Positions 2,793 to 59,272 of a DNA stretch of 64,000 nucleotides are shown here, in pieces. The stretch is from Escherichia coli. Its GTDB lineage: Bacteria; Pseudomonadota; Gammaproteobacteria; Enterobacterales; Enterobacteriaceae. Below the pieces are notes generated by a model, which was not told the origin of the DNA, ran no database searches, and saw only the letters and a list, made by a program, of their open reading frames with translations. The stretch lies in the NCBI RefSeq assembly GCF_044324875.1, contig NZ_CP172185.1; one strand, 5' to 3'. The translations under genes and the position numbers were made by a program. Every line of letters starts with the position of its first letter. Within the stretch, counting starts at the first letter, position 1.

Positions 2793-3761
2793 ATGAAAAC
2801 AGCAGATGCAGCGAAAGGCCGTTGGCCTGAAATATTAGAGCACTTCGGTCTGCCGCCGATAACCGGAAAAAATCACTTTAAGGGTGAATGCCCGGTATGC
2901 GGTGCACGTGGCAAGTTCCGAATTGACGACCGCGACGGTGCAGGAACGTGGATCTGTGTATGTGGTAGTGGCGATGGTATGAAACTTGTCACCCTGACAC
3001 AGGCGAAGCCATTTAACGAGATTTGTACCGAAATAGACCGCCTGATCGGTAATGATTACCAACGGGTTAAAATCCCGGTAACCAGCAGCGCCACCAGCTT
3101 ACGCAAACGGGTATTGAGCAAGTTTTCAAAACTGGAGGCACTGCGTGGTACATCCGGCGCCGCGTATCTTAATTCTCGTGGAATATTCAGTCTTCCTGCT
3201 GAGGCGATCAGGTTCAATGCCAGGCAGAGACACAACGGGAGTGTGTTCCAGTCTCTTTATTCACTTGCTACGGACGATAAAGGGGAGCTGTGCTATCTGC
3301 ATCAGACCCTGCTTGATGGTGATAAAAAAGCAGATATCGGTAGCAGTGCAAAGCGCCTCAAATCCCTGCAGGAAGATAACTATCTGGATCACGCTCGTTC
3401 TGTAGCTATCCGCATGTTTCCTGTCGCCAGCACTCTGGGTATCGCCGAAGGCATCGAAACAGCGCTGTCAGCGCACCAGATTTATAACGTGAACACCTGG
3501 GCAACCATTAACAGCGGCTTTATGAAAAAGTTCCGTGTACCAGCTGGTGTTCTGCATCTGATTATTTTTGCTGACCGTGACGAGAACAGCGCCACCGGGC
3601 TGGCTGCGGCTTGCGAATGTGCTCATGCCAATCTGATGGCAAAGAATGACCTGCAGCGCGTGAGCGTGTACTGGCCGGATCACGATGATTTCAACAATAT
3701 GCTCATGAACGGTGATCAGGTTCGGGAGCTGGTTTTCCATAAGAAAAAGGCGGTTGCGTAA
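2793..3761 (+). CDS. DNA primase-like protein (N-terminal zinc ribbon + Toprim region)
   Basis: CPVCGARGKFRIDDRDGAGTWICVCG zinc-binding motif; acidic Toprim-like FADRDEN; immediately follows helicase. Confidence 0.7.
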   Translation: MKTADAAKGRWPEILEHFGLPPITGKNHFKGECPVCGARGKFRIDDRDGAGTWICVCGSGDGMKLVTLTQAKPFNEICTEIDRLIGNDYQRVKIPVTSSATSLRKRVLSKFSKLEALRGTSGAAYLNSRGIFSLPAEAIRFNARQRHNGSVFQSLYSLATDDKGELCYLHQTLLDGDKKADIGSSAKRLKSLQEDNYLDHARSVAIRMFPVASTLGIAEGIETALSAHQIYNVNTWATINSGFMKKFRVPAGVLHLIIFADRDENSATGLAAACECAHANLMAKNDLQRVSVYWPDHDDFNNMLMNGDQVRELVFHKKKAVA

Positions 3762-5709: not shown

Positions 5710-6813
5710 TCAGAACTGATAAGTCAAACCAACAGCGACAATATCATCGGTTAATACATCAGTTCTTTCAGTGAATTGATTCTTATCAAGCAGGTTGATT
5801 TTATAGTCTACGTATGTAGACATATTTTTGTTGAAGTAATAAGCAGCACCGACTTCAATGAATTTTTCAATGTATCCGTCATTATGTTTTTCAGGGATAC
5901 CAGTTTTGGTGGAAAGGTCTTTGGCTTTCGACTGGATATAAGCAAGAGACGGGCGCAAACCAAAGTCGAACTGATACTGTGCAACTACAGCGAAATCTTC
6001 AGTTTTATTGGCTACACCGTTGTAGCCGCCGGGCGAGTACTTGATTGCGCGGGTATTACGTGTTTCACCATAAGTGGCTGCCAGGTACAGATTATTCGCG
6101 TCATATTTTACGCTGGTAGCCCACTGTTCAGCTTTTTTACCTTTACCAAAAGTCGTCGCTTCCTGTGCATTGGTGCGATCGGCTGCACCATATGCAGCTA
6201 CAAAACCAAAGCCTTCATATTCATAACTGACAGAGCCGCCAACACCGTCGCCGTTTGAAGTGCCTGCATTGTCACGCTCATTTTTACCCAGATACTGAAC
6301 CGCAAAGTTCAGTCCATCAACCAGACCGAAGAAGTCGGTATTACGGTAAGTGGCAACACCACCTACACGACCCACGAAGAAGTTATCCCCGTTAACAGAA
6401 CCAGGCCCAAATTCAGGGAGGACATCAGTATAGCTTAATGCGTCATACACCACGCCATAGTTACGACCATAATCCAGAGAGCCAATATTTTCTAGTTTCA
6501 GGCCAGCGTATGCCAGACGGGTTTTGTCTCCTGCAGAGCCATCTTTTTCTGCCTTGTTGCCTTTGAATTCATATTCCCATTGACCAAAACCAGTTAACTG
6601 ATTGTTGATTTGGGTTTCACCTTTGAATCCAAGACGGGCATAAGTTCCATCACCTTCTTCTTTGGCGTTAGAAGAAAAGTAATGTTTACCCACTACTTTG
6701 CCATATAAATCCAGTTTATTACTGTTTTTATTATATATTTCTGCTGCATTTGCAGACATTGCCAGAAATACTGATGCTGCTACAGCAGAAAGTGCCACTG
6801 TTAAATTTTTCAT
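5710..6813 (-). CDS. Outer membrane porin (OmpC/NmpC family) moron
   Basis: Signal peptide [29 protein letters not shown], porin-type beta-strand composition, C-terminal aromatic residue; same position and orientation as nmpC in DLP12-type prophages. Confidence 0.85.
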
Positions 6814-7411: not shown

Positions 7412-7487
7412 GGCCCTTTAGCTCAGTGGTGAGAGCGAGCGACTCATAATCGCAAGGGCGCTGGTTCAAATTCAGCAAGGGCCACCA
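7412..7487 (+). tRNA. tRNA with anticodon CAU, ileX/ileZ-like (tRNA-Ile2 reading AUA, or Met)
   Basis: Cloverleaf folds by hand: acceptor GGCCCTT/AAGGGCC, D-arm GCTC..GAGC, anticodon loop CTCATAA, T-arm GCTGG-TTCAAAT-TCAGC, 3' CCA; close to recalled E. coli ileX. Confidence 0.85.
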
Positions 7488-7488
7488 A

Positions 7489-7565
7489 CCGCTACTAGCT
7501 CATCAGGAAAGAGCGTCAACCCTTTAAGTTGAGTGCGCTAGGTTCGATTCCCCGCTGGCGGTCCA
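7489..7565 (+). tRNA. tRNA-like element, probably degenerate (arg-tRNA-like architecture)
   Basis: Acceptor 6/7 bp, good D-arm and perfect anticodon stem, canonical T-loop TTCGATT, but T-stem has 2 mismatches and loop CCTTTAA lacks U33; ends CCA. Confidence 0.35.
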
Positions 7566-10108: not shown

Positions 10109-10540
10109 TGCCATTACAAAAGCCACTCCCTACAGAGTGGCTTTGATAATGGCTTATACCCTACACGGGATAACTTAACTGATATCCCTTTTAACGGATA
10201 AAGGTATTCAAGCCTGACACATCATGCGCTGTATCGTCGCTGTATTCCCGCATTAACCATGACCGTAGCCCGACGGGGAACTCCTTCTGCGCGAGTGTGC
10301 GGGAATAATCAAAAACGATGCACACCGGGTTTTTACCGCGCTAATGATTCGCGGGTTTGTCCCTCATGCTCGCCAGTCCGGTGCGATGGTGGAAGAAACC
10401 GGAAGCTGTATTACAGAAAGTGCTACTACTGTATCCTGATGCGATGTATGTAATGTGAGTCAGATAATGGCACAGGATGTGGTGATGTGGCAGTCTGGAA
10501 CACAGGATATATTGTCAGAATAAGACCCGTAGGAATAAAA

Positions 10541-10867
10541 ATGAAAAGACGCCTTTCACTACTTTTTCTGTTATCTGCCCTGGCAGTGGGATGCTCGCAG
10601 CAAAAAGCTGATGAGCCCCGGCAATTAGTGACGGTGTATCCACGATATCCGGAATATGCTGCAGCAAATTATATCAAGGGGCTGGTTGAGGTTAAGTTCG
10701 ATATTGGTGCTGACGGGACTGTGACACGGATCGTTTTTCTCCGCTCAGAGCCTCATAATTTGTTTCGTGATGAAGTGGTGAAGGCCATGGCGAAATGGAG
10801 ATTTGAAAAGAATAGTCCCCGTCAGGGAGTGAAGAGACAATTTATCTTTACGCCATCACGTCCCTGA
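10541..10867 (+). CDS. Lipoprotein with TonB C-terminal-like domain (moron)
   Basis: Signal/lipobox MKRRLSLLFLLSALAVGC; C-terminal region GLVEVKFDIGADGTVTRIVFLRSEPHNLFRDEVVKAMAKWRFE matches the TonB C-terminal pattern (compare E. coli TonB GQVKVKFDVTPDGRVDNVQIL...FEREVKNAMRRWRYE). Confidence 0.6.
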   Translation: MKRRLSLLFLLSALAVGCSQQKADEPRQLVTVYPRYPEYAAANYIKGLVEVKFDIGADGTVTRIVFLRSEPHNLFRDEVVKAMAKWRFEKNSPRQGVKRQFIFTPSRP

Positions 10868-11483: not shown

Positions 11484-11634
11484 TTGATGATGCCTCTGTG
11501 TGAAATGACGGTAAACGACGCACTTGTGCCGGCACATAATAGCAAGCATCAGAATAGATCAGATTCGATTCTTGCTGTAAGTGATAATTATTCTCGTTTT
11601 TTTCGGGTCCTTTCCGGCGATCCAACAGGTTACG

Positions 11635-11646
11635 GGGCGTCGACCT
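11635..11646 (+). other. cosN-like cohesive-end site
   Basis: ACGGGGCGTCGACCTCGCG differs at one base from recalled lambda cos ACGGGGCGGCGACCTCGCG; about 190 bp upstream of Nu1. Confidence 0.5.
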
Positions 11647-11838
11647 CGCGCAAAACAACTCCTTATGAAATTTTTACGGGAAATTCAGATCCGTTCTTCT
11701 TTCTTGTAAGTCATTGTGTATATTGAATTTTATTTGTTCTGAGAAAGGATCTGATAAGGCTTCGTTTCGCCTGAAAAGGCAGTTTTAAGATCCTTTCTTA
11801 AAAAAACGGGTCATTTTCTTGCTGGAGGGGATGCTGGT

Positions 11839-12387
11839 GTGAGGGTTAACAAGAAAAAGCTGGCTGAGATTTTTGATGTTGATGTGCGGACTATATCCAC
11901 CTGGCAAAATCAGGGGCTGCCGCTGATATCAGGCGGCGGGAAAGGGAATGAAGCGATTTTTGATACGGGAAAAGCGATTGAGTGGTTCGCTCAGCGTGAG
12001 GCCGACATTGAAAATGAAAAACTTCGTAAGGAAGTCGACGATATGCGCGTGGCTGCTGAGTCGGATCTGCAGCCCGGTACGATTGATTACGAACGCTACC
12101 GTCTCACAAAAGCACAGGCAGATGCGCAGGAACTGAAAAATGCTCGTGAGGAAGGGCTGGTTCTTGAAACGGAATTATTTACCTACATTTTTCAGCGAGT
12201 TGCGCAGAATATATCCGGGATCCTTGTTCGTGTTCCGCAGACACTGCAGCGTAAATACCCTGATATATCACCAGCACATCTTGATGCTGTGAAAACTGAA
12301 ATCGCGAAAGCATCCGATGTGGCTTCTGAATCAGGTGAGAATGTGTGCAGGTGGATTGATGATTTCAGACGAGCTGAGGGCGGCTAA
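11839..12387 (+). CDS. nu1: Terminase small subunit (lambda Nu1-like)
   Basis: [41 protein letters not shown] closely parallels lambda Nu1 N-terminus; GTG start. Confidence 0.85.
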
Positions 12388-14287
12388 CTCTACAGGAGCG
12401 ATAACGACTGGTCTCCTTGCGCTAAAAATTCCTGTACCCCTGACGACAGTTCAGTGGGCAGATCAACATTATTACCTGCCGAAAGAGTCGTCTTACACAC
12501 CAGGGCGGTGGGAAACATTGCCGTTTCAGGTTGCCATAATGAACAGTATGGGTAATGACCTGATCCGCACTGTTAATCTGATTAAATCTGCCCGTGTTGG
12601 TTATACAAAAATGCTGTTGGGAGTGGAGGCTTATTTTATTGAGCATAAATCCCGCAACAGTCTGCTTTTTCAGCCCACGGACTCAGCTGCTGAAGATTTT
12701 ATGAAATCTCATGTTGAGCCAACGATAAGGGATGTTCCTGCATTGCTGGAGCTGGCTCCATGGTTCGGAAGAAAACACCGCGATAATACGCTCACCCTGA
12801 AGCGTTTTTCCTCCGGTGTGGGGTTCTGGTGTCTGGGTGGTGCGGCAGCAAAAAATTACCGTGAAAAATCCGTGGATGTGGTCTGTTATGACGAGCTTTC
12901 CTCGTTCGAACCGGATGTTGAAAAAGAGGGCTCGCCAACCCTGCTGGGGGATAAGCGTATTGAGGGCTCTGTATGGCCAAAATCCATTCGCGGCTCGACG
13001 CCTAAAATCAAAGGCTCCTGCCAGATCGAAAAAGCCGCTAACGAGTCGGCACATTTCATGCGTTTTTATGTGCCCTGCCCGCACTGTGGGGAGGAGCAGT
13101 ATCTGAAATTTGGTGATGATGCCTCGCCTTTCGGTCTTAAGTGGGAGAAGGACAGCCCCGAAAGCGTTTTCTACCTTTGTGAGCATCATGGCTGTGTGAT
13201 CCATCAGTCTGAGCTTGACCAGAGTAACGGGCGGTGGATCTGTGAAAACACGGGGATGTGGACCCGTGACGGCCTGATGTTTTTCAGCGCCCGGGGTGAT
13301 GAAATTCCGCCGCCGCGCTCCATCACTTTCCATATCTGGACGGCGTACAGTCCGTTCACCACCTGGGTACAGATAGTCTATGACTGGCTGGATGCACTGA
13401 AAGATCCCAACGGCCTGAAAACCTTTGTGAACACCACGCTGGGCGAGACCTGGGAAGAGGCCGTGGGCGAAAAACTCGATCACCAGGTACTGATGGATAA
13501 GGTTGTGCGTTACACGGCGGCGGTGCCTGCCCGGGTGGTTTATCTGACGGCGGGCATTGACTCGCAGCGAAACCGTTTTGAGATGTATGTCTGGGGATGG
13601 GCTCCGGGAGAGGAAGCCTTTCTGGTGGATAAAATCATTATTATGGGGCGTCCCGATGAGGAAGAGACGCTGTTACGTGTGGATGCAGCGATCAACAAAA
13701 AATACTGCCATGCAGACGGAACCGAAATGACCATTTCCCGTGTCTGCTGGGACATCGGGGGGATCGATGGAGAAATCGTTTATCAGAGGTCAAAAAAACA
13801 CGGTGTTTTCCGGGTGCTGCCGGTAAAAGGCGCATCTGTCTATGGCAAGCCGGTGATCACCATGCCAAAAACCCGCAATCAGCGGGGCGTGTATCTGTGT
13901 GAAGTGGGCACGGACACCGCAAAAGAAATTCTCTATGCCCGTATGAAAGCCGCTCCCACGCCTGCGGATGAATCCACGTCGTATGCCATCCGTTTTCCTG
14001 ATGATCCGGAGATTTTTTCGCAGACAGAGGCGCAGCAACTGGTCGCGGAAGAGCTTGTGGAGAAGTGGGAAAAAGGAAAGATGCGTCTGCTGTGGGATAA
14101 CAAAAAGCGGCGTAACGAAGCGCTGGACTGCCTGGTGTATGCCTACGCGGCATTACGTGTGTCCGTGCAACGCTGGCAGCTTGATCTGGCTGTACTGGCA
14201 AAATCCCGGGAAGAAGAGACGACCCGGCCAACCCTTAAAGAACTGGCAGCGAAGCTGTCCGGAGGAGTGAATGGTTACAGTCGCTGA
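12359..14287 (+). CDS. A: Terminase large subunit (lambda gpA-like)
   Basis: Collinear with lambda A ([39 protein letters not shown]); start chosen by alignment (ORF track begins 12317). Confidence 0.9.
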
Positions 14288-18002: not shown

Positions 18003-19031
18003 ATGGGATTGTTTACGACCCGCCAGTTACTCGGTTATACCGAACAAAAAGTGAAATTTCGTGCGCTGTTTCTGGAGCTGTTTTTCCGCCGTACGGTGAA
18101 TTTCCATACCGAAGAGGTGATGCTGGACAAAATTACCGGAAAAACGCCGGTGGCGGCCTATGTCTCCCCGGTTGTTGAAGGAAAAGTGCTGCGTCATCGT
18201 GGTGGTGAAACCCGCGTCTTGCGTCCGGGCTACGTCAAGCCGAAACACGAATTTAATTCCCGGCAGGCGGTTGAGCGCCTTCCTGGTGAAGATCCGGCTC
18301 AACTGAACGATCCGGCTTACCGCCGTCTGCGTATCATTACCGATAACCTCAAACAGGAAGAGCACGCGATTGTCCAGGTGGAAGAAATGCAGGCGGTAAA
18401 TGCCGTGCTGTATGGCAAATACACCATGGAAGGAGACCAGTTCGAGAAAATTGAGGTCGATTTTGGCAGATCGCCGGCGAATAACATTACGCAGGCCAGT
18501 GGTAAAAAATGGTCTGAGCACGATCGTGACACGTTCGATCCTGCGCATGATATTGACCTCTACTGCGACCAGGCCAGCGGCCTTGTGAATATTGCCATTA
18601 TGGACGGTACCGTCTGGCGTCTGCTGAATGGTTTTAAGCTGTTCCGCGAAAAACTGGATACCCGTCGCGGTTCAAATTCGCAACTCGAAACGGCAGTGAA
18701 AGACCTGGGGGCGGTGGTGTCTTTCAAAGGGTATTACGGTGATCTGGCCATTGTGGTGGCGAAAACGTCTTATGTGGCAGAGGACGGTACCGAAAAACGT
18801 TATCTGCCAGACGGCACGCTGGTCCTGGGGAATACTGCTGCAGATGGGATCCGTTGTTACGGTGCCATTCAGGATGCACAGGCGTTGTCTGAAGGAGTGG
18901 TGGCCTCTTCCCGTTATCCGAAACACTGGCTGACGGTGGGGGATCCCGGCCGTGAATTTACCATGACGCAGTCCGCGCCGCTGATGGTGTTGCCGGACCC
19001 GGATGAGTTTGTGGTGGTACAGGTGAAATAA
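18003..19031 (+). CDS. E: Major capsid protein (lambda gpE-like)
   Basis: 342 aa; position and size as lambda E. Confidence 0.9.
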   Translation: MGLFTTRQLLGYTEQKVKFRALFLELFFRRTVNFHTEEVMLDKITGKTPVAAYVSPVVEGKVLRHRGGETRVLRPGYVKPKHEFNSRQAVERLPGEDPAQLNDPAYRRLRIITDNLKQEEHAIVQVEEMQAVNAVLYGKYTMEGDQFEKIEVDFGRSPANNITQASGKKWSEHDRDTFDPAHDIDLYCDQASGLVNIAIMDGTVWRLLNGFKLFREKLDTRRGSNSQLETAVKDLGAVVSFKGYYGDLAIVVAKTSYVAEDGTEKRYLPDGTLVLGNTAADGIRCYGAIQDAQALSEGVVASSRYPKHWLTVGDPGREFTMTQSAPLMVLPDPDEFVVVQVK

Positions 19032-19794: not shown

Positions 19795-20114
19795 GGGAGT
19801 GAGTATGTATATCCGGGGTATGGAAAATGCCATTGAAAACCTGAGCCGTATTAACCGCAGTGCGGTACCCGGTGCGGCGGCGATGGCCTTAAACCGGCTG
19901 GGTTCTGCAGTCACTGCGCAATCGGCATCACAGGTATCCCGTGAGGTCAAAATCCCACGGAAATTTGTCCGTGAAAGGATGAAGCTAAAAAAGGCCACAC
20001 CAAAAAATCAGTCTGTCCGGATCTAGACTGGCCCCCTGAATCTCCAGACAACCAGTATCACTTAAATAAGTGATAGTCTTAATACTAGTTTTTAGACTAG
20101 TCATTGGAGAACAG

Positions 20115-20480
20115 ATGATTGATGTCTTAGGGCCGGAGAAACGCAGACGGCGTACCACACAGGAAAAGATCGCAATTGTTCAGCAGAGCTTTGAACCGGG
20201 GATGACGGTCTCCCTCGTTGCCCGGCAACATGGTGTAGCAGCCAGCCAGTTATTTCTCTGGCGTAAGCAATACCAGGAAGGAAGTCTTACTGCTGTCGCC
20301 GCCGGAGAACAGGTTGTTCCTGCCTCTGAACTTGCTGCCGCCATGAAGCAGATTAAAGAACTCCAGCGCCTGCTCGGCAAGAAAACGATGGAAAATGAAC
20401 TCCTCAAAGAAGCCGTTGAATATGGACGGGCAAAAAAGTGGATAGCGCACGCGCCCTTATTGCCCGGGGATGGGGAGTAA
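20115..20480 (+). CDS. insC: IS2 transposase OrfA (InsC)
   Basis: [26 protein letters not shown]... recognised as IS2 InsC. Confidence 0.85.
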
Positions 20481-21343
20481 GCTTAGTCAGCCGTTGTCTC
20501 CGGGTGTCGCGTGCGCAGTTGCACGTCATTCTCAGACGAACCGATGACTGGATGGATGGCCGCCGCAGTCGTCACACTGATGATACGGATGTGCTTCTCC
20601 GTATACACCATGTTATCGGAGAGCTGCCAACGTATGGTTATCGTCGGGTATGGGCGCTGCTTCGCAGACAGGCAGAACTTGATGGTATGCCTGCGATCAA
20701 TGCCAAACGTGTTTACCGGATCATGCGCCAGAATGCGCTGTTGCTTGAGCGAAAACCTGCTGTACCGCCATCGAAACGGGCACATACAGGCAGAGTGGCT
20801 GTGAAAGAAAGTAATCAGCGATGGTGCTCTGACGGGTTCGAGTTCCGCTGTGATAACGGAGAAAAACTGCGAGTCACGTTCGCGCTGGACTGCTGTGACC
20901 GTGAGGCACTGCACTGGGCGGTCACTACGGGCGGCTTCAACAGTGAAACAGTACAGGACGTCATGCTGGGAGCGGTGGAACGCCGCTTCGGCAACGAGCT
21001 TCCGGCGTCTCCAGTAGAGTGGCTGACGGATAATGGTTCATGCTACCGGGCTAATGAAACACGGCAGTTTGCCCGGATGTTGGGGCTTGAACCGAAGAGC
21101 ACGGCGGTGCGGAGTCCGGAGAGTAACGGCATAGCAGAGAGCTTCGTGAAAACGATAAAGCGTGACTACATCAGTGTCATGCCCAAACCAGACGGGTTAA
21201 CGGCAGCAAAGAACCTTGCAGAGGCGTTCGAGCATTATAACGAATGGCATCCGCATAGTGCACTGGGTTATCGCTCGCCACGGGAATATCTACGGCAGCA
21301 AGCCAGTAATGGGTTAAGTGATAACAGGTGTCTGGAAATATAG
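20438..21343 (+). CDS. insD: IS2 transposase OrfB (InsD), expressed by -1 frameshift from OrfA
   Basis: 301-aa ORF with integrase-core-like region; overlaps insC in -1 frame. Confidence 0.85.
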
Positions 21344-21718
21344 GGGCAAATCCAGGATCGTGGTTAACCGGGGCGATTTTCCGGTGATCAAACTGGGTAA
21401 CGCCAGACTGCGACTGTCCAGGCGTAAACGTCGTCGAAAGGGCGAGCGTTCAGCCGAGAAAGGCGGAGGAAGTGTTCTTGTCGTGGGGAACCGCCGTATT
21501 CCGGGGGCTTTTATCCAGAGACTTAAAAACGGTCGCTGGCATGTTATGCAGCGGGAAGCAGGCCGAAATCGTTATCCTATTGATGTGGTGAAAATACCGA
21601 TGCAGGCTCCGCTGACGTCAGGGGTGCAGGAGAATATCACACGGTTGTACAGGGATAAGTTTCCCGCAGAACTGGCTGCCGCACTGAAACAGAAGATACG
21701 AATGGAGGTGAAAAAGCG

Positions 21719-22114
21719 ATGAAGCATACTGATATCCGCAATGCCGTGCTGAATGCGCTGGAGGAGACTACCGAGGGTGTGACGCTGTATGACGGACTGC
21801 CCGCCGTTATCGAAGACGGGGATTTTCCGGTTATTGCCGTTTATATCACGGATGCTGCATATACAGGTGAGGTGCTTGATGCGGATACGTGGGAGGCCAC
21901 TCTGCATATTAATCTGTTTCTTCCGGTCCAGGTTCCTGATGCTGAACTGGATGACTGGATGGAAAAACGCATTTATCCGGCGATTGAAAATATCCCCGCT
22001 CTGGCCGGACTGATAACCACCATGGTACCGCAGGGCTATGATTACCAGCGTGATCAGGACATGGGGTCATGGAGTGCGGCAGATCTGACTTATACCATTA
22101 CATACGATATGTGA
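21719..22114 (+). CDS. U: Minor tail protein U (lambda gpU-like)
   Basis: 131 aa; MKHTDIRNAVLNALEE...DLTYTITYDM parallels lambda U. Confidence 0.85.
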   Translation: MKHTDIRNAVLNALEETTEGVTLYDGLPAVIEDGDFPVIAVYITDAAYTGEVLDADTWEATLHINLFLPVQVPDAELDDWMEKRIYPAIENIPALAGLITTMVPQGYDYQRDQDMGSWSAADLTYTITYDM

Positions 22115-23301: not shown

Positions 23302-23729
23302 ATTTTGTCCTGAGACTGGCGCGTGAGATGGGAAGACCCGACTGGCGCGCCATGCTGGCGGATATGTCATCAACGGAATATGCCGACTGGCATCAGTTTT
23401 ACCGTACGCATTATTTTCATGATGTGCTGCTGGATCAGCATTTTGCTGGGCTGACGTATACCGTGCTCAGCCTGTTTTTCAGCGATCCGGATATGCATCC
23501 GCTGGATTTCAGTCTGCTGAACCGGCGTGAGGCTGACGAAGAGCCTGAAGATGACGTGCTGATGCAGAAAGCAGCAGGGCTTGCCGGAGGGGTTCGTTTT
23601 GACCCTGCGGGGAATAAAGTCATCTGCATTGCCTCTGATGTGGAGGATATGACGGGGGATGGTGTCATGCTGATGACGATATCGGAAGGTATAGCAGGAG
23701 GTAGACGGTATGGCTCAACCGGTCAGTGA
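22897..23729 (+). CDS. Tail assembly chaperone G-T fusion via programmed -1 frameshift
   Basis: Slippery heptamer G GGA AAG at 23277-23283 in G frame; the -1 frame is open from there to 23729. Confidence 0.6.
23277..23283 (+). promoter_or_regulatory. Programmed -1 ribosomal frameshift slippery site GGGAAAG
   Basis: Same heptamer and frame register as the lambda G/GT site. Confidence 0.6.
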
Positions 23730-25077
23730 TCTTGTCGTTGATATGACGCTGGATGCCACCCGGTTCAGCGAACAGATCAAAAAGGTCAGGCAGCATTTTC
23801 AGCAGGTGGACAGTGATGCAGGAAAAACGGCTGTTGCTGTTGAGCAATCCATGTCCCGGCAGGCGGAAGCTGCCCGCCGTGCCGGGATATCCATCGGTCA
23901 GTATAAGGCTGCGATGCGCACTCTGCCCGCGCAGTTTACTGATATCGCCACGCAACTGGCCGGTGGTCAGAGTCCATGGCTGATCCTGTTGCAGCAGGGC
24001 GGTCAGGTGAAGGACTCCTTCGGCGGACTGATCCCCATGTTCCGGGGACTTGCGGGGGCCGTTTCGTTACCAGCTGTCGGGGTGGGGGCTTTGGCTGCAG
24101 CGACAGGAGCGCTGGCGTATGCCTGGTACCAGGGTGACTCAATCCTGTCTGATTTCAGTAAAACGCTCGTATTGTCCGGTAATCAGGCAGGACTGACGGC
24201 AGATCGTATGCTGGCCCTGTCCAGAGCCGGGCAGGCAGCAGGGCTGACGTTTAACCAGACCAGCGAATCACTCAGTGCACTGGTTAAGGCGGGGGTACGC
24301 GGTGAGGCTCAGATTGCATCCATCAGCCAGAGTGTGGCGCGTTTCTCCTCTGCATCCGGCGTGGAGGTGGACAGGGTCGCTGAAGCCTTCGGGAAGCTGA
24401 CCTCTGACCCGACATCGGGGCTGACGGCGATGGCGCGCCAGTTCCATAACGTGACGGCGGAGCAGATTGCGTATGTTGCTCAGTTGCAGCGTTCCGGCGA
24501 TGAAGCAGGGGCATTGCAGGCGGCAAACGAGGCCGCAACGAAAGGGTTTGATGACCAGACCCGTCGACTGAAAGAGAACATGGGCACACTGGAGACCTGG
24601 GCAGACAAAACTGCCGGAGCGTTCAGAAGCATGTGGGACGCTATTCTGGATATTGGTCGCCCGGAGTCCTCTGCTGACATACTGGATAAGGCGCAGAAAG
24701 CCTTTGATGAAGCAGATAAAAAATGGCAGTGGTATCAGAGCCGCAGTCACCGACGGGGTAAAACATCTTCATTTCGTGCGAATCTTCAGGGCGCGTGGGA
24801 TGACAGAGTAAATGCGCAACTGGGGCTTTCAGCGGCCACACTGCAGGCTGATCTTGAAAAAGCCAGTGAGATGGCTGCAAAATGGCATCTGAATCGATCG
24901 CAGTTTGGCATTCGAATCGATCATGATTTGGCATCCATCTCCGATCACAGTTTGGCATCACAATCGATCACGATTTGGCATGCTTCCGATCATTGATTGG
25001 CATCCTGCCAGTCACTCCGGGAATTAACTCTTTTCACCACAGTCTCCATTGCCGTGTTTAAACCAGTGGAGACGTCA

Positions 25078-26643
25078 ATGTCCAGAAAGAGAAAATCCAG
25101 GAGCACTATGGAAACCTGTTTTAAGATCCTTCAGCTCAAGTTCGACAAGAAGCTGACTAACCGTTGTATCGGACTGACGTTACACATCAGCGCCTCAACC
25201 GTTTTTGAGGTTCTTGCCCGCTTCAAAGCCTCTTCTCTGTCATGGCCATTACCTGCTGATATATCCCATGACACGCTGGAGAAACTCATTTTTCCGCCCA
25301 AAGACACCTTTGCATCAGAGCTTGTAATGCCTGACATGTTGTACTTCGATACGGAAATGAGAAAACCAGGTGTGACGCGGCAACTGTTGTGGATGGAATA
25401 CAAGGCACAGGCGGGTAACAAAGCGATGGGATACTCGCACTTCTGCCGTTGCTACCGGGAGTGGAAAAAAACGCGACGTCTCTCCATGCGCCAGGAGCAT
25501 CGTGCCGGCGAAAAGCTTTTTATCGACTTCTGTGGTCCTACGGTTCCTGTTATTAATCCGGACACCGGTGAGATACGCCGCGTGGCAATCTTCGTGGCCG
25601 TAATGGGGGCGTCCAACTATACCTACGTTGAAGCGTGCGAAGGTCAGGACATGATGTCATGGTTAAATGCCCACAGCCGTTGCCTGACCTTCCTGGGCGG
25701 CGTACCGAAGCTGCTCATCCCCGATAACCTCAGAAGCGCAGTGAAAAAGGCCGATCGATATGAGCCTGTCATCAACGACAGTTATCAGGCACTGGCTGAG
25801 CACTATGGCACGGTTATCATCCCGGCCCGACCACGCAAACCTAAAGATAAACCAAAAGCAGAAAACGGCGTCCTCATCGTTGAACGATGGCTTCTTGCCC
25901 GCATCCGTAATGAAACCTTCCACACGCTCAGGGCGCTGAATGCGCGCCTTAGGGAGTTACTGACAGACATGAATAACCGGCCAATGAAGGGGTACGGCAA
26001 TCAAACCCGTGCAGAACGCTTCCGCATACTGGATGCGCCAGCACTCTCTCCGCTGCCTCTGGCACCTTATGAATACACGGAATACAAAGCTGTGAAGGTT
26101 GGCCCTGACTACCACGTTGAATATGCCCGTCACTGGTACTCCGTTCCACACGAACTGGTCGGTCAGCGTCTGTCACTGAAGGCGGGGCAGTCGGTGGTAC
26201 AGCTCTGGCACAAGGGGCAGTGTGTGGCGCAACATCCGCGCAGCACACATGAATATAAACACACAACCAATCCGCTTCACATGCCAGAGCGCCACCGGCA
26301 GCACGGGACATGGACACCGGAACGCCTGATCGAGCAGGGAAAACGTACGGGCCCGTCCACAGGCCGGGTGGTTGAATCCATGCTGAAGGCAAAACCCCAT
26401 CCGGAACTGGCTTATCGTGCAGTTCTGGGGCTGCTGGCACTTCAGAAAAAATACGGCCCGGAACGGCTGGAAAAGGCCTGTTACGTTGCCCTGCACTATA
26501 ACGCCCCTGACAGACGCTTTATCGACAATCTGCTGCGTCACCATCGGGAGAACCTGGAGCTTCCATTATCCCGCCAGGGCGAACAACATCCGGCATATGC
26601 TTCAGAGCATGAAAACCTGCGTGGTCCGGGCTACTACCACTGA
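25078..26643 (+). CDS. istA: IS21-family transposase IstA
   Basis: N-terminal HTH-like region then integrase-core-like region; start uncertain (25078 or 25108). Confidence 0.8.
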   Translation: MSRKRKSRSTMETCFKILQLKFDKKLTNRCIGLTLHISASTVFEVLARFKASSLSWPLPADISHDTLEKLIFPPKDTFASELVMPDMLYFDTEMRKPGVTRQLLWMEYKAQAGNKAMGYSHFCRCYREWKKTRRLSMRQEHRAGEKLFIDFCGPTVPVINPDTGEIRRVAIFVAVMGASNYTYVEACEGQDMMSWLNAHSRCLTFLGGVPKLLIPDNLRSAVKKADRYEPVINDSYQALAEHYGTVIIPARPRKPKDKPKAENGVLIVERWLLARIRNETFHTLRALNARLRELLTDMNNRPMKGYGNQTRAERFRILDAPALSPLPLAPYEYTEYKAVKVGPDYHVEYARHWYSVPHELVGQRLSLKAGQSVVQLWHKGQCVAQHPRSTHEYKHTTNPLHMPERHRQHGTWTPERLIEQGKRTGPSTGRVVESMLKAKPHPELAYRAVLGLLALQKKYGPERLEKACYVALHYNAPDRRFIDNLLRHHRENLELPLSRQGEQHPAYASEHENLRGPGYYH

Positions 26644-26659
26644 CAGAAGGAACAACAGT

Positions 26660-27415
26660 ATGAGTGATAACCTGTTAAACAAACTGACCCAACTGAAACT
26701 CCCGGCGATGGCCGGGAGCCTGATACGGCAGCGGGAAACGCCTCAGACCTACGACGAACTGTCGTTCGAGGAAAGGCTGACGCTGCTGGTTGATGACGAG
26801 CTTCTGAGCAGGGAAAACAGCCGTGTGGCACGGTTGAGAAAAAATGCCGGCCTGAAATACCAGGCAACACCGGAAGGGCTGCGCTATCCGGCCTCAAGAG
26901 GTCTGCGGGCTGAACAGATGAGAGAACTGCTGAACGGCCACTACATAACCCACAGGAAAAACCTGCTGATAACCGGTCCGACAGGATGTGGCAAGAGCTG
27001 GATAGCCAATGCGCTGGGCGAACAGGCATGTCGACAGAAACACAGCGTCCGGTACTGTAGAACCGGGCGATTACTGGAACAACTGGCTCAGGGACGTGTT
27101 GATGGCAGCTGGCTGAAATATCTGAAACAGTTGCAAAAAATACAGGTTCTAATCCTGGACGATCTGGGGCTGGAACAGTTAAGTAACGCCCAGTGTAATG
27201 ACCTTCTGGAGCTCATAGAGGATCGTTACGGACAAAGCAGCACGATAGTGGTAAGCCAGTTCCCGGTAGATAAATGGCATGGTCTGATGGAGAACCCAAC
27301 AACAGCAGATGCCATCCTGGACAGACTGGTACATAACTCACACCGAGTGGTCCTTCAGGGAGAGTCACTGAGGAAAAATCCCCCGGTAGTGGAAAGCAGC
27401 GAAAAAACGCGTTAA
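26660..27415 (+). CDS. istB: IS21-family helper ATPase IstB
   Basis: Walker A GPTGCGKS, Walker B LILDDLG; 251 aa. Confidence 0.85.
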   Translation: MSDNLLNKLTQLKLPAMAGSLIRQRETPQTYDELSFEERLTLLVDDELLSRENSRVARLRKNAGLKYQATPEGLRYPASRGLRAEQMRELLNGHYITHRKNLLITGPTGCGKSWIANALGEQACRQKHSVRYCRTGRLLEQLAQGRVDGSWLKYLKQLQKIQVLILDDLGLEQLSNAQCNDLLELIEDRYGQSSTIVVSQFPVDKWHGLMENPTTADAILDRLVHNSHRVVLQGESLRKNPPVVESSEKTR

Positions 27416-28931
27416 AAAGCGGTAGAAAAAGTTAAGTTCCCGGTTGATCGAATGGATGCGAATCGCTGATCGGACTTCGATGCCAATCCGTGATCGAATA
27501 GAGCGGAATACGCAAGATGGCTGCAAAAGATCGTGCCGAATCAGAGGCTTCACGACTCAGGTACACTGAAGAGGCGCAGAAGGCTTACGAACGGCTGCAG
27601 ACACCGCTGGAAAAATATACCGCCCGTCAGGAAGAACTGAACAAGGCACTGAAAGACGGGAAAATCCTGCAGGCAGATTACAACACGCTGATGGCGGCGG
27701 CGAAAAAGGATTATGAAGCGACGCTGAAAAAGCCGAAACAGTCCGGCGTGAAGGTGTCTGCGGGCGATCGTCAGGAAGACAGTGCTCATGCTGCCCTGCT
27801 GACGCTTCAGGCTGAACTCCGGACGCTGGAGAAGCATGCCGGAGCAAATGAGAAAATCAGCCAGCAGCGCCGGGATTTGTGGAAGGCGGAGAGTCAGTTC
27901 GCGGTACTGGAGGAGGCGGCGCAACGTCGCCAGCTGTCTGCACAGGAGAAATCCCTGCTGGCGCATAAAGATGAGACGCTGGAGTACAAACGCCAGCTGG
28001 CGGAACTTGGCGATAAGATTGAACACCAGAAACGGCTGAACGAACTGGTACAGCAGGCGGAGAAATTCGCACAGCAGCAACGGGCAAAACGGGCCGCCAT
28101 TGATGCGAAAAGCCGGGGACTGACTGACCGGCAGGCAGCGCGGGAAGCCACGGAACAGCGCCTGAAGGAACAGTATGGCGATAATCCGCTGGCGCTGAAT
28201 AACGTCATGTCAGAGCAGAAAAAGACCTGGGCGGCTGAAGACCTGCTTCGCGGGAGCTGGATGGCAGGCCTGAAGTCCGGCTGGAGTGAGTGGGAAGAGA
28301 GCGCCACGGACAGTATGTCGCAGGTTAAAAGTGCTGCCACGCAGACCTTTGATGGTATTGCGCAGAATATGGCGGCGATGCTGACCGGCAGTGAACAGAA
28401 CTGGCGCAGCTTCACCCGCTCCGTGCTGTCCATGATGACAGAAATTCTGGTTAAGCAGGCAATGGTGGGGATTGTCGGGAGTATCGGCAGCGTCATTGGC
28501 GGTGCTGCCGGTGGTGGCGCATCAGTGTCAGGCGGTACAGCCATTCAGGCCGCTGCGGCAAAATTCCATTTTGCGACCGGGGGATTTACGGGAACCGGCG
28601 GCAAATATGAGCCAGCGGGGATTGTTCACCGTGGTGAATTTGTCTTCACGAAGGAGGCAACCAGCCGGATTGGTGTCGGCAACCTGTACCGCCTGATGCG
28701 GGGCTATGCGGAAGGTGGTTATGTGGGCGGTGCCGGAAGTCCGGCGCAGATGCGGCGGGCTGAAGGCATTAATTTTAATCAGAACAATCACGTGGTGATT
28801 CAGAACGACGGTACGAATGGTCTGCCAGGTCCACAGATGATGAAGGCAGTGTATGACATGGCCCGCAAGGGTGCCCGTGATGAAATTCAGGCACAGATGC
28901 GCGATGGTGGTCTGTTCTCCGGAGGTGGACG

Positions 28932-29261
28932 ATGAAAACCTTCCGCTGGAAAGTGAAACCCGGTATGGATGTGGCTTCGGCCCCTTCTGTAAGAAAGGTG
29001 CGCTTTGGTGATGGCTATTCCCAGCGAGCGCCTGCCGGGCTGAATGCCAACCTGAAAACGTACAGCGTGACGCTTTCTGTTCCCCGTTGGGAGGCCACGG
29101 CGCTGGAGTCGTTTCTGGCTGAGCACGGGGGCTGGAAGGCCTTTCTGTGGACGCCGCCTTATGAGTGGCGGCAGATAAAGGTGACCTGCGCAAAATGGTC
29201 GTCGCGGGTCAGTATGCTGCGTGTTGAGTTCAGCGCAGAGTTTGAACAGGTGGTGAACTGA
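28932..29261 (+). CDS. M: Minor tail protein M
   Basis: 109 aa; MKTFRWKVKPGMDVASAPSVRKVRFGDGYSQRAPAGLNANLKTYSVTL nearly identical to recalled lambda M. Confidence 0.9.
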   Translation: MKTFRWKVKPGMDVASAPSVRKVRFGDGYSQRAPAGLNANLKTYSVTLSVPRWEATALESFLAEHGGWKAFLWTPPYEWRQIKVTCAKWSSRVSMLRVEFSAEFEQVVN

Positions 29262-58600: not shown

Positions 58601-59272
58601 ATGAGTCCGCGGGCATTCAAGGCCTACCAACTCATTGGCGATTTCTGGTTTTTCCGGGAGGATCAGCGCAATAAAAGGGCGGCGAACTTTGGTTATTCCT
58701 GGCAGTGCGGCAATGAGTTTGTCGGCGCAACGCTGCCAGCTGCTTTCCTCTGCCAGAGAGAGATGCTTACGCAGTCGGAGATCGAATTCGTTATAGGTTT
58801 CTGATCGATAACCATAGCCATAATCCTCGTTCTGATACTGCAATGTCACTAGCAGAGGATCACTCTCATAACACCGTGCAATAAACTGGCGTGCAATCAC
58901 CACCTCAGTCGCATATTCCAGTCCCTCTTGTTGGACGATTTCGTCGAGCAACTGTTGGCTATCATTTTGCGCGATACAGGCTAGCGCCGCCATTGTCCGG
59001 GCCGGAACTGAGGGTTTGTGTTCTCCGATCAAGTTGATGGCCTGCGTAATGGCCGACTGCCACTCCAGTGAAAAATTTTCATAACGCCAGACAATGTTTT
59101 TTTTCTTCTCAGCTTTTTGTAGCAATTCATCACCCAGTGTCTGGATGAGGCTTTCAGTGATAACAGGCACCGGTTCGCCCGGCCAACTGCGATGGCTGAG
59201 CGGCGTTTTGCCTTTTTTATATTTCAGTTCCACTTGGGCGTTATCCGCCAGCCACGGTAATTCCTTGTCCAT
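55628..59272 (-). CDS. yehI: YehI-like large protein (DUF4132 family)
   Basis: 1214 aa; C-terminal region shares DFGPRQFTV.FDE...LKKD...RRW...HP..R.L.RRLIWGVY with the two adjacent paralogues. Confidence 0.8.
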   Translation of the reverse strand: MDKELPWLADNAQVELKYKKGKTPLSHRSWPGEPVPVITESLIQTLGDELLQKAEKKKNIVWRYENFSLEWQSAITQAINLIGEHKPSVPARTMAALACIAQNDSQQLLDEIVQQEGLEYATEVVIARQFIARCYESDPLLVTLQYQNEDYGYGYRSETYNEFDLRLRKHLSLAEESSWQRCADKLIAALPGITKVRRPFIALILPEKPEIANELVGLECPRTHFHSKEWLKVVANDPRAVKKLERYWSQDIFSDREASYMSHENHFGYAACAALLREQGLAAVPRLAMYAHKEDCGSLLVQINHPQVIRTLLLVADKNKPSLQRVAKYSKNFPHATLAALAELLALKEPPARPGYPIIEDKKLPAQQKARDEYWRTLLQTLMASQPQLAEEVMPWLSTQARAVVKSYLSASSKPVIDCTDNSSLPEILVSPPWRGRKKTSIPHFSLPELTLATQACRSSQEHWTPEQQTAIDHFSAMSFDERLAKRGADTFLRELGFDVHSLEFNKRLLNGQLDAFDAQQLQEYTSIGLLRTYYAHQAKSKQYREEATKALLVQDSIALMEGWRTFQHGFYYGNEKRWGIWNLYLIAQMPREMAVSCWQQIVAADFHYTGVEYLLSVLGTDALPGLNTAFARHPKEIFPLLIHFGATELALPVARVWRRFAAQRDLARQWILQWPEHTATALIPLVFTKSSDNSEAALLALRLLYEQGHGELLQTVANRWQRTDVWPALEQLLKQSPIEIYPTRIPKAPDFWQPAMWSRPRLITNNQPVTDDALEIIGEMLRFTQGGRFYSGLEQLKTFCQPQTLAAFAWDLFTAWQQAGAPAKDNWAFLALSLFGDESTARDLTTQILAWPQEGKSARAVSGLNILTQMNNDMALIQLHHISQRAKSRPLRDNAAEFLQVVAENRGLSQEQLADRLVPTLGLDDPQALIFDFGPRQFTVRFDENLNPVIFDQQNVRQKSVPRLRADDDQLKAPEALARLKGLKKDATQVSKNLLPRLETALRTTRRWSLADFHSLFVNHPFTRLVTQRLIWGVYPANEPRRLLNAFRVAAEGEFCNAQDEPIDLPADALIGIAHPLEMAAEMRSEFAQLFDDYEIMPPFRQLARRTVLLTPDESASNSLNRWEGKSATVGQLMGMRYKGWESGYEDAFVYDLGAYRLVLKFSPGFNHYNVDSKALMSFRSLHVYRDNKSVTFAELDVFDLSEALSAPDVIFH

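Follow-up and report, generated by a model that had tools for sequence, protein, structure and literature searches.

We analysed a 64,000-nucleotide stretch of the Escherichia coli contig NZ_CP172185.1 (henceforth the window; all coordinates are given along its full length), which holds a lambdoid prophage of the helicase/toprim/porin type beside the yeh locus. The porin gene (5710–6813, − strand) lies between Q and the lysis genes, and is followed by two tRNA genes on the + strand (7412–7487 and 7489–7565; CAT anticodon and Lys-TTT, respectively) and by a gene for a protein with a TonB C-terminal domain (10487–10867, + strand) just upstream of the packaging region. That region, which takes in the cosQ, cosN and cosB elements typical of cohesive-end phages, precedes the small and large terminase genes, after which come W and then the genes for the portal, the protease and the capsid; these three and both terminase genes are intact.

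The packaging region begins with the cosQ heptamer GGGTCCT (11605–11611, + strand), which is identical in lambda and phage 21 and corresponds to the packaging-termination signal (PMC4669245). It lies exactly 30 bp upstream of bp 1 of the cohesive end, the same distance as in lambda. By alignment to lambda and 21, cosN together with the CG on either side occupies 11633–11648 (+ strand) and contains the cohesive-end 12-mer GGGCGTCGACCT at 11635–11646 (+ strand). Eleven of its 12 bases match lambda's GGGCGGCGACCT, the sole mismatch being at bp 6 (position 11640, + strand), where the window has T and lambda, 21, phi80-type phages and most relatives have G. The 12-mer is directly preceded by GTTACG and directly followed by CGCG, as seen in alignments with the annotated cos of phage 21 (M81255) and with lambda taken from a DE3 record. 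By homology, the top strand is predicted to be nicked at 11634/11635 and the bottom strand at 11646/11647, which would leave 5'-GGGCGTCGACCT overhangs. The 12-mer alone is not enriched, as the window contains 5 matches with at most 2 mismatches against 5.9 expected by chance. Homology is instead demonstrated by the surroundings of the 12-mer (i.e., cosQ spacing, CG nick sites, I2 core, R boxes and terminase genes), and identity to annotated cos sites extends over more than 60 bp of flanking sequence. A second copy of the lambda 12-mer with one mismatch (GGGCGGCGAACT, at 58677–58688) is found in host DNA; we rejected it as a chance match, since cos-like flanks are absent there. We likewise rejected the idea of a rotational symmetry about a centre shifted by 1 bp (a GTCGAC palindrome), as the competing models were not discriminated.

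Rightward of cosN, differences from lambda as well as from phage 21 set in. The left part of I2 (11651–11662, + strand; bp 17–28) is replaced, reading CAAAACAACTCC versus the widely conserved GGTTTTCGCTAT; the I2 core TATGAA (11664–11669, + strand; bp 30–35) is conserved, and the A/T tract beside it is also retained. In lambda, bp 18–29 can be replaced with no effect on growth, while replacement of bp 30–35 is lethal (PMC4856287). Three R boxes then follow in the lambda arrangement of R3, inverted R2 and R1. Specifically, a predicted TerS-binding box TCAGATCCGTTCT (11685–11697, + strand; bp 51–63) aligns with R3 of lambda (bp 50–65 in that phage), 21 and Gifsy-1; an R2-like box lies inverted at 11742–11754 (− strand; the + strand reads AGAAAGGATCTGA); and an R1-like box TAAGATCCTTTCT, placed by alignment at 11786–11798 (+ strand), forms an inverted-repeat arm that pairs with R2. 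A repeat finder also recovered R3 and R2 as an inverted repeat with 92% complementarity. Between R3 and R2, a consensus scan yielded a candidate IHF site I1 (11707–11719, − strand), which matches 7 of 9 consensus positions (weak when taken alone) and aligns with the position of I1 in lambda. The core of all three R boxes is AGATCC, and neither the CGTTTCC of lambda nor the CATGTCGG of phage 21. The distance from cosN to R3 is 1 bp shorter than in lambda, 21, Gifsy-1 and the prophage L129, and because spacing changes can displace nicks (PMC4856287), the actual ends could differ from those predicted.

These alignments of cosQ, cosN and cosB to lambda and 21, which had been proposed as a check of the original prediction, established that the match is not coincidental and that cosB elements are present. 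The prediction of a cos site differing by a single base from lambda cosN was thus borne out by the T at 11640 between homologous flanks, and the span given for it (11600–11838) correctly covers cosQ through cosB. The suggestion that this is lambda's own cos bar one base holds for the 12-mer, but is not supported right of cosN, where bp 17–28, the R boxes and the R3 spacing all differ.

The small terminase gene (TerS, Nu1/gp1 family; 11839–12387, + strand) has a GTG start, encodes 182 amino acids and is recognised by the Pfam profile Phage_Nu1 with E=7e-83. As anticipated from the sequence, the cos lies in the expected position upstream of this Nu1-family gene, whose reading frame starts 192 bp downstream of the 12-mer. 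The large terminase gene (TerL, gpA/gp2 family; 12359–14287, + strand) encodes a full-length protein of 642 amino acids with the Pfam domains GpA_ATPase and GpA_nuclease, so the claim that both terminase genes are intact also stands. TerL aligns without gaps to phage 21 gp2 at 97% identity, and is equally close (97%, gap-free) to the TerL of a prophage with canonical cosN; no special nuclease is therefore implied by the variant base. TerS is composite: residues 1–101 are identical to the TerS of a satellite described below, and residues 102–182 are of phage 21 type. Among named phages, residues 1–101 are closest to PhiR5_1 (84%, the maximum), followed by Gifsy-1 (81%) and 21 (78%). The recognition helix reads RTISTWQNQ, as opposed to RTIQNWQEQ in lambda, and is unlike those of lambda, 21 and Gifsy-1.

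We compared the whole arrangement with three of its closest described counterparts. Phage 21 (M81255; terminase gp1/gp2) has the same order of elements (cosQ-cosN-I2-R3-I1-R2-R1-gene 1-gene 2), a near-identical cosQ side and left cosN flank, and a TerS in which 65 of 79 positions over residues 102–180 match and which shares the C-terminal, TerL-binding tail. It differs in having G at bp 6, R boxes of the CATGTCGG type rather than AGATCC, a different recognition helix in its TerS DNA-binding domain, the conserved bp 17–28 that are replaced in the window, and an R3 that is 1 bp further from cosN. The Salmonella phage Gifsy-1 (NC_010392) has the same R-box core in R3, inverted R2 and R1 (CAGATCCGTTCTTCTT, AAAGGATCTG and CAGATCCTTTC) and the same spacer motif ACTCCTTATGA, together with a similar TerS DNA-binding domain, but differs in host genus, in cosN (GGGCGGCAGCGT, with differences at bp 8, 9 and 11, and G at bp 6), and in the recognition helix VRTVTAWQSQ, several residues of which are unlike the window helix. 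Lambda has the same architecture, cosQ, CG nick flanks, I2 core and R3 position as well as all but one of the cohesive-end bases, and differs in its cosB R boxes and in TerS, where only 64 of 101 N-terminal and 23 of 79 C-terminal positions match.

Because both the R boxes and TerS differ, neither the cosB specificity nor the TerS-TerL pairing would be lambda's. The original suggestion that lambda packaging specificity may be retained is thus not supported, given R boxes of the Gifsy-1 class and a TerS recognition helix different from that of Nu1. Phage 21 specificity fares no better: R boxes and the gp1 helix differ here too, and only TerL and the C-terminal domain of TerS are of 21 type. Judged from these alignments, the system joins a TerL and a TerS C-terminal domain of 21 type to a recognition module putatively of the Gifsy-1 class, and its predicted specificity is not that of lambda.

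The composite nature of TerS is matched by a mosaic structure of the DNA around it. From the left up to position 11650, the window is near-identical to both L129 and phage 21, the only differences from either being at 11617 and 11640. From 11629 to approximately 12134 (+ strand), it shares a cassette with a PICI-type satellite (L127/L130) at 99.6% identity, i.e., with 2 differences in 506 bp, located at 11640 and 11703. This cassette comprises cosN, I2, cosB and TerS codons 1 to about 99. The 21-like and satellite-like tracts overlap only in a 22-bp cosN core, with the variant base inside the overlap; the right joint is at TerS residue 101, within a conserved stretch of 26 residues. Compared in this way, the site is best described as a recombinant that joins a 21-like cosQ side to a cassette of the Gifsy-1 R-box class, which is also found in a PICI-type satellite.

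The satellite L130 is an island of about 10 kb (NZ_CP033635, 1593993–1603467) with cspD/yljB on one side and clpS on the other. Its gene content comprises an Arm-type integrase, AlpA, a D5-type primase, SSB, PerC, ProQ and a Nu1-family TerS of 194 amino acids, besides a cos; annotation and Pfam searches revealed no structural genes in it and no TerL downstream of its cos. By this layout it is a PICI-type satellite. E. coli cos-PICIs such as EcCICFT073 are known to combine phage-like cosQ and cosN with a cosB of their own, read by Rpp, which has a Nu1-like winged-helix domain (PMC6739421, PMC9026076). L130 differs from the EcCICFT073 type in that it has a full-length TerS with its own C-terminal domain instead of a short Rpp. 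Its cosB is tripartite (R3/R2/R1), and a complete phage (the window's) has an identical cosB and TerS DNA-binding domain. The C-terminal domain of its TerS matches lambda at 33 of 79 positions and 21 at 27 of 79, and domains of this type are common in clpS-adjacent satellites, where they occur with other N-terminal domains. The cassette of cosB and TerS DNA-binding domain therefore appears, from these comparisons, to be portable between full phage and satellite and to pair with different TerL-binding domains.

The distribution of the variant base across the cassette is itself mixed: the L127 cassette carries G at bp 6, another island (L128) carries T together with a 1-nt insertion, and prophages carry the T-bearing cassette on two different left flanks. 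We tentatively entertain the possibility that packaging specificity was exchanged directly and recently between a helper phage and its parasite, leaving the 506-bp cassette as a record, with joints in the 22-bp cosN core and in the conserved TerS hinge. The joint in the cosN core possibly arose when cohesive ends of two different packaged molecules were joined, the bp-6 mismatch segregating afterwards. An origin of the window phage by recombination between the ECCNB12-2 prophage and the resident satellite L127 was not supported: that prophage differs from the window over 9.7–12.4 kb, including the whole of terS, and already has T on a different cosB.

Several further loci were encountered alongside these. 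In NZ_CP127316, the cos of L128 (approximately 3040–3060; GGGCGTCGAACCT) has T at bp 6 and the 1-nt insertion within the cohesive end, lies beside a truncated terS, and may be either decayed or the source of a 13-nt end. The same record holds a PICI-type island next to tRNA-Ile and mug (L131) in which terS survives only as a truncated fragment, and a PICI-type island next to clpS in NZ_CP026755 (L133) encodes a Nu1-family TerS with the C-terminal type of L130. Both L131 and L133 encode a lambda E-like major capsid protein and a D-like decoration protein, with neither TerL nor portal; L130, L131 and L133 are all unlike the Rpp-type PICIs of the papers cited above. Another group, consisting of L134, L137, L146, L148, L152 and about 40 other IMG/VR loci, has two inverted lambda-type cos sites 500–870 bp apart, resembling the reported cos1/cos2 pair of EcCICFT073, and a few of these loci have T at bp 6 in both. 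Finally, a prophage in NZ_CP033635 (L291) also carries GGGCGTCGACCT (positions 18694–18705 of that locus), with a 169-amino-acid TerS of another type and a cosB of the CATGTCCGG class; it has the early region and head genes of the window prophage, and its strain also carries the satellite L127.

We then asked how common T at bp 6 is. The least biased view came from scanning with no anchor other than cosQ, GTTACG and CGC, and 226 sites were covered. The first five bases of the cohesive end were invariant in all 226, and bp 6 was G in 215, T in 6 and A in 5 of them, counts which carry the caveat that the samples were partly biased by earlier targeted scans. Among the 52 loci first met in the flank-anchored scan, the corresponding numbers were 47 (G), 1 (T) and 4 (A). 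With sites classed as phage by the presence of a TerL gene downstream, T was found in phage loci L136, L200, L203 and L291 and in the window's family, spanning several cosB classes, and A in L250, L252, L259 and L264, the last of which has A beside lambda's own cosB. Both alleles are also present in satellites, and at least four further cosB types, in phages and satellites alike, have T as well. T was additionally seen on 13 genuine cos-bearing metagenome contigs. It is concentrated in one left-flank lineage (5 T versus 1 G). We considered whether the left flank CCCGTTACG is specific to satellites, and rejected this since the ECCNB12-2 prophage and other TerL-bearing loci carry it. In IMG/VR, no T was found with the phage 21/lambda left flank, compared with at least 120 matches for G. 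The T-bearing core was absent from 100,044 species-representative genomes (one genome per species), and no curated record of an isolated phage matched the T-bearing 81-nt cos core at 99% or more. A full-text search retrieved no phage paper with the T or A 12-mers (the cosN survey of Vahanian et al. 2017 was outside its scope).

Natural variation of the cohesive end has been documented at bp 7–12, namely at bp 9 and 12 in N15 and phiD326, and at bp 8, 9 and 11 in Gifsy-1 (PMC4669245, Feiss laboratory), and the cohesive end GGGCGGCGCGCT of mEp213/LLS is another documented natural variant (PMC12315714). In the documented variants at bp 7–12 the packaging system is kept; the window variant differs from them in that it falls at bp 6, within the nominally conserved left half. 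By our counts, variability in cosN starts at bp 6, where T is uncommon (a few per cent) but recurrent.

The T-bearing cassette is 98–100% conserved in 14 complete E. coli records, which trace to France, Ecuador, China and Germany and represent some six or seven strains, and a 66-nt stretch including the T is 100% identical in 14 complete E. coli genome records. As these records agree and the T variant is also present in metagenome contigs, the T is not a sequencing error. Many of the T carriers are poultry isolates. At least three unrelated prophage backbones, at different integration sites, carry the cassette: besides the window's, these are a DNA-polymerase type beside yfhH/tadA and a Rac-like type at ompW. 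In the prophage of E. coli F1022 (NZ_OY754357), for which the annotation shows an uninterrupted late operon, only the cos-head region is related to the window (99% identity), with the early, lysis and tail regions being different. The same record (NZ_OY754357.1) has a second place matching cos-region queries, including the 66-mer, which is not a full island of the L127/L128 type.

The window prophage itself is damaged outside the head region. An IS21-family element (approximately 24882–27514; IstA 24997–26643, IstB 26417–27415, with multiple terminal repeats near 24890–25010) splits a lambda-type tape-measure gene into reading frames at 23710–24996 and 27517–28935. An IS3-family element (approximately 19897–21350, ends approximate; transposase reading frames 20070–20480 and 20438–21343) is found inside a Z-like tail-completion gene, at the point where a related prophage ceases to be collinear; the C-terminal part of this gene resumes at approximately 21318–21722, and the gene thus appears to be split as well. 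Given these two insertions, the prophage is probably tail-defective, and the check put forward with the original prediction, in which virion DNA ends are sequenced after induction, would probably not succeed with this strain in its present state. Other carriers are also damaged, namely LR-31 (a head-to-tail deletion) and strain 135 (an IS66 in J). Downstream of the tail-fibre genes, the window has an IS66-family element with transposase, TnpB-like and TnpA-like reading frames (38287–40620, − strand), and related prophages have IS66 copies at other positions.

Taking these observations together, we conclude with a probability of roughly 80% that this is the cohesive-end site for packaging in a lambdoid prophage whose terminase is of phage 21 type, and that T in place of G at bp 6 is a natural allele which the site tolerates. 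That it is a genuine lambda-type cos of a phage 21-like E. coli prophage follows, on alignment, from its flanks. The observed anatomy, homology, mosaic boundaries and allele distribution suggest how such a site would work, with nicks, protein binding and activity predicted by analogy to the described systems. TerS dimers would occupy R3 and the inverted R2 on either side of a bend assisted by IHF, with an accessory role for R1; the bound TerS would position TerL to nick the two strands 12 bp apart at cosN, leaving 5'-GGGCGTCGACCT ends; and cosQ, 30 bp upstream, would serve termination. T at bp 6 leaves both ends mutually complementary. All elements known to be critical are present (cosQ, CG nick flanks, bp 1–5, I2 bp 30–35 and R3), and the replaced bp 17–28 lie in the part of I2 that can be substituted in lambda without effect (PMC4856287). 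Lambda terminase and N15-hybrid terminases give equal yields with the cosN of lambda and that of N15, and mismatched cohesive ends are viable (both PMC4669245). On this reading, T at bp 6 marks neither a new terminase nor a broken site.

One could argue that the cos is instead decaying and poorly or non-functional, with damage accounting for the altered bp 6, the replaced part of I2 and the 1-bp shift in spacing alike. The insertion sequences in two tail genes of the window prophage and the damage in two of its relatives would fit such a picture, as would the reports that mutations within cosN's left half can lower yield (PMC4669245) and that cosN-cosB spacing is critical in lambda. We nevertheless regard decay as unlikely, since the three features are near-unchanged across 18 genomes, metagenome contigs and a packaging-dependent satellite, T recurs with the other cosB types listed above, bp 17–28 are dispensable in lambda (PMC4856287), and no damage is seen in the terminase, portal, protease or capsid genes. 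The insertions are later events, as they are absent from relatives such as the F1022 prophage.

A further alternative is that T is adaptive, either because its carriers form a cohesive-end compatibility group and join less readily with canonical lambdoid genomes, or because it changes the efficiency with which particular terminases cut. Nearest-neighbour estimates, to be read only in relative terms, give a drop of about 4.5 °C relative to the canonical duplex when T is matched, and of 10–20 °C for mixed T/G ends with a T.C or G.A mismatch; the concentration of T in a single left-flank lineage also points in this direction. We find adaptation improbable to a considerable degree, given that TerL is so close to the TerLs of phages with canonical cos, that lambda and N15-hybrid terminases lack cosN specificity and mismatched ends are infectious (PMC4669245), and that T, A and G are found together on many combinations of flanks, the pattern that a near-neutral polymorphism would give. 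Lastly, the notion that the 12-mer is no cos element, but a chance resemblance or a sequencing error, draws on its lack of enrichment over shuffled sequence and can be practically dismissed, as the first is refuted by the aligned flanks, cosQ spacing, R boxes and adjacent terminase genes, and the second by identical sequence in many independent assemblies.

Nothing in the cos and cassette findings would surprise a specialist, and they come from sequence alone. With a tolerated natural allele at bp 6 as the preferred reading, they do refine a rule in the literature: it appears to be bp 1–5, and not bp 1–6, of the cohesive end that is invariant, with G, T and A all occurring at bp 6 in nature. 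They also indicate that cos sites of the lambda type can be called from their flanks (cosQ, GTTACG and CGC) despite a non-canonical 12-mer. The portable cassette is relevant to the way in which packaging specificity passes between satellites and helpers. If the exchange between helper and parasite that we tentatively propose were true, phages of the window's family would be either natural helpers of these satellites or escapees using a satellite recognition module, and the alleles at bp 6 would be markers of cos-mediated joints.
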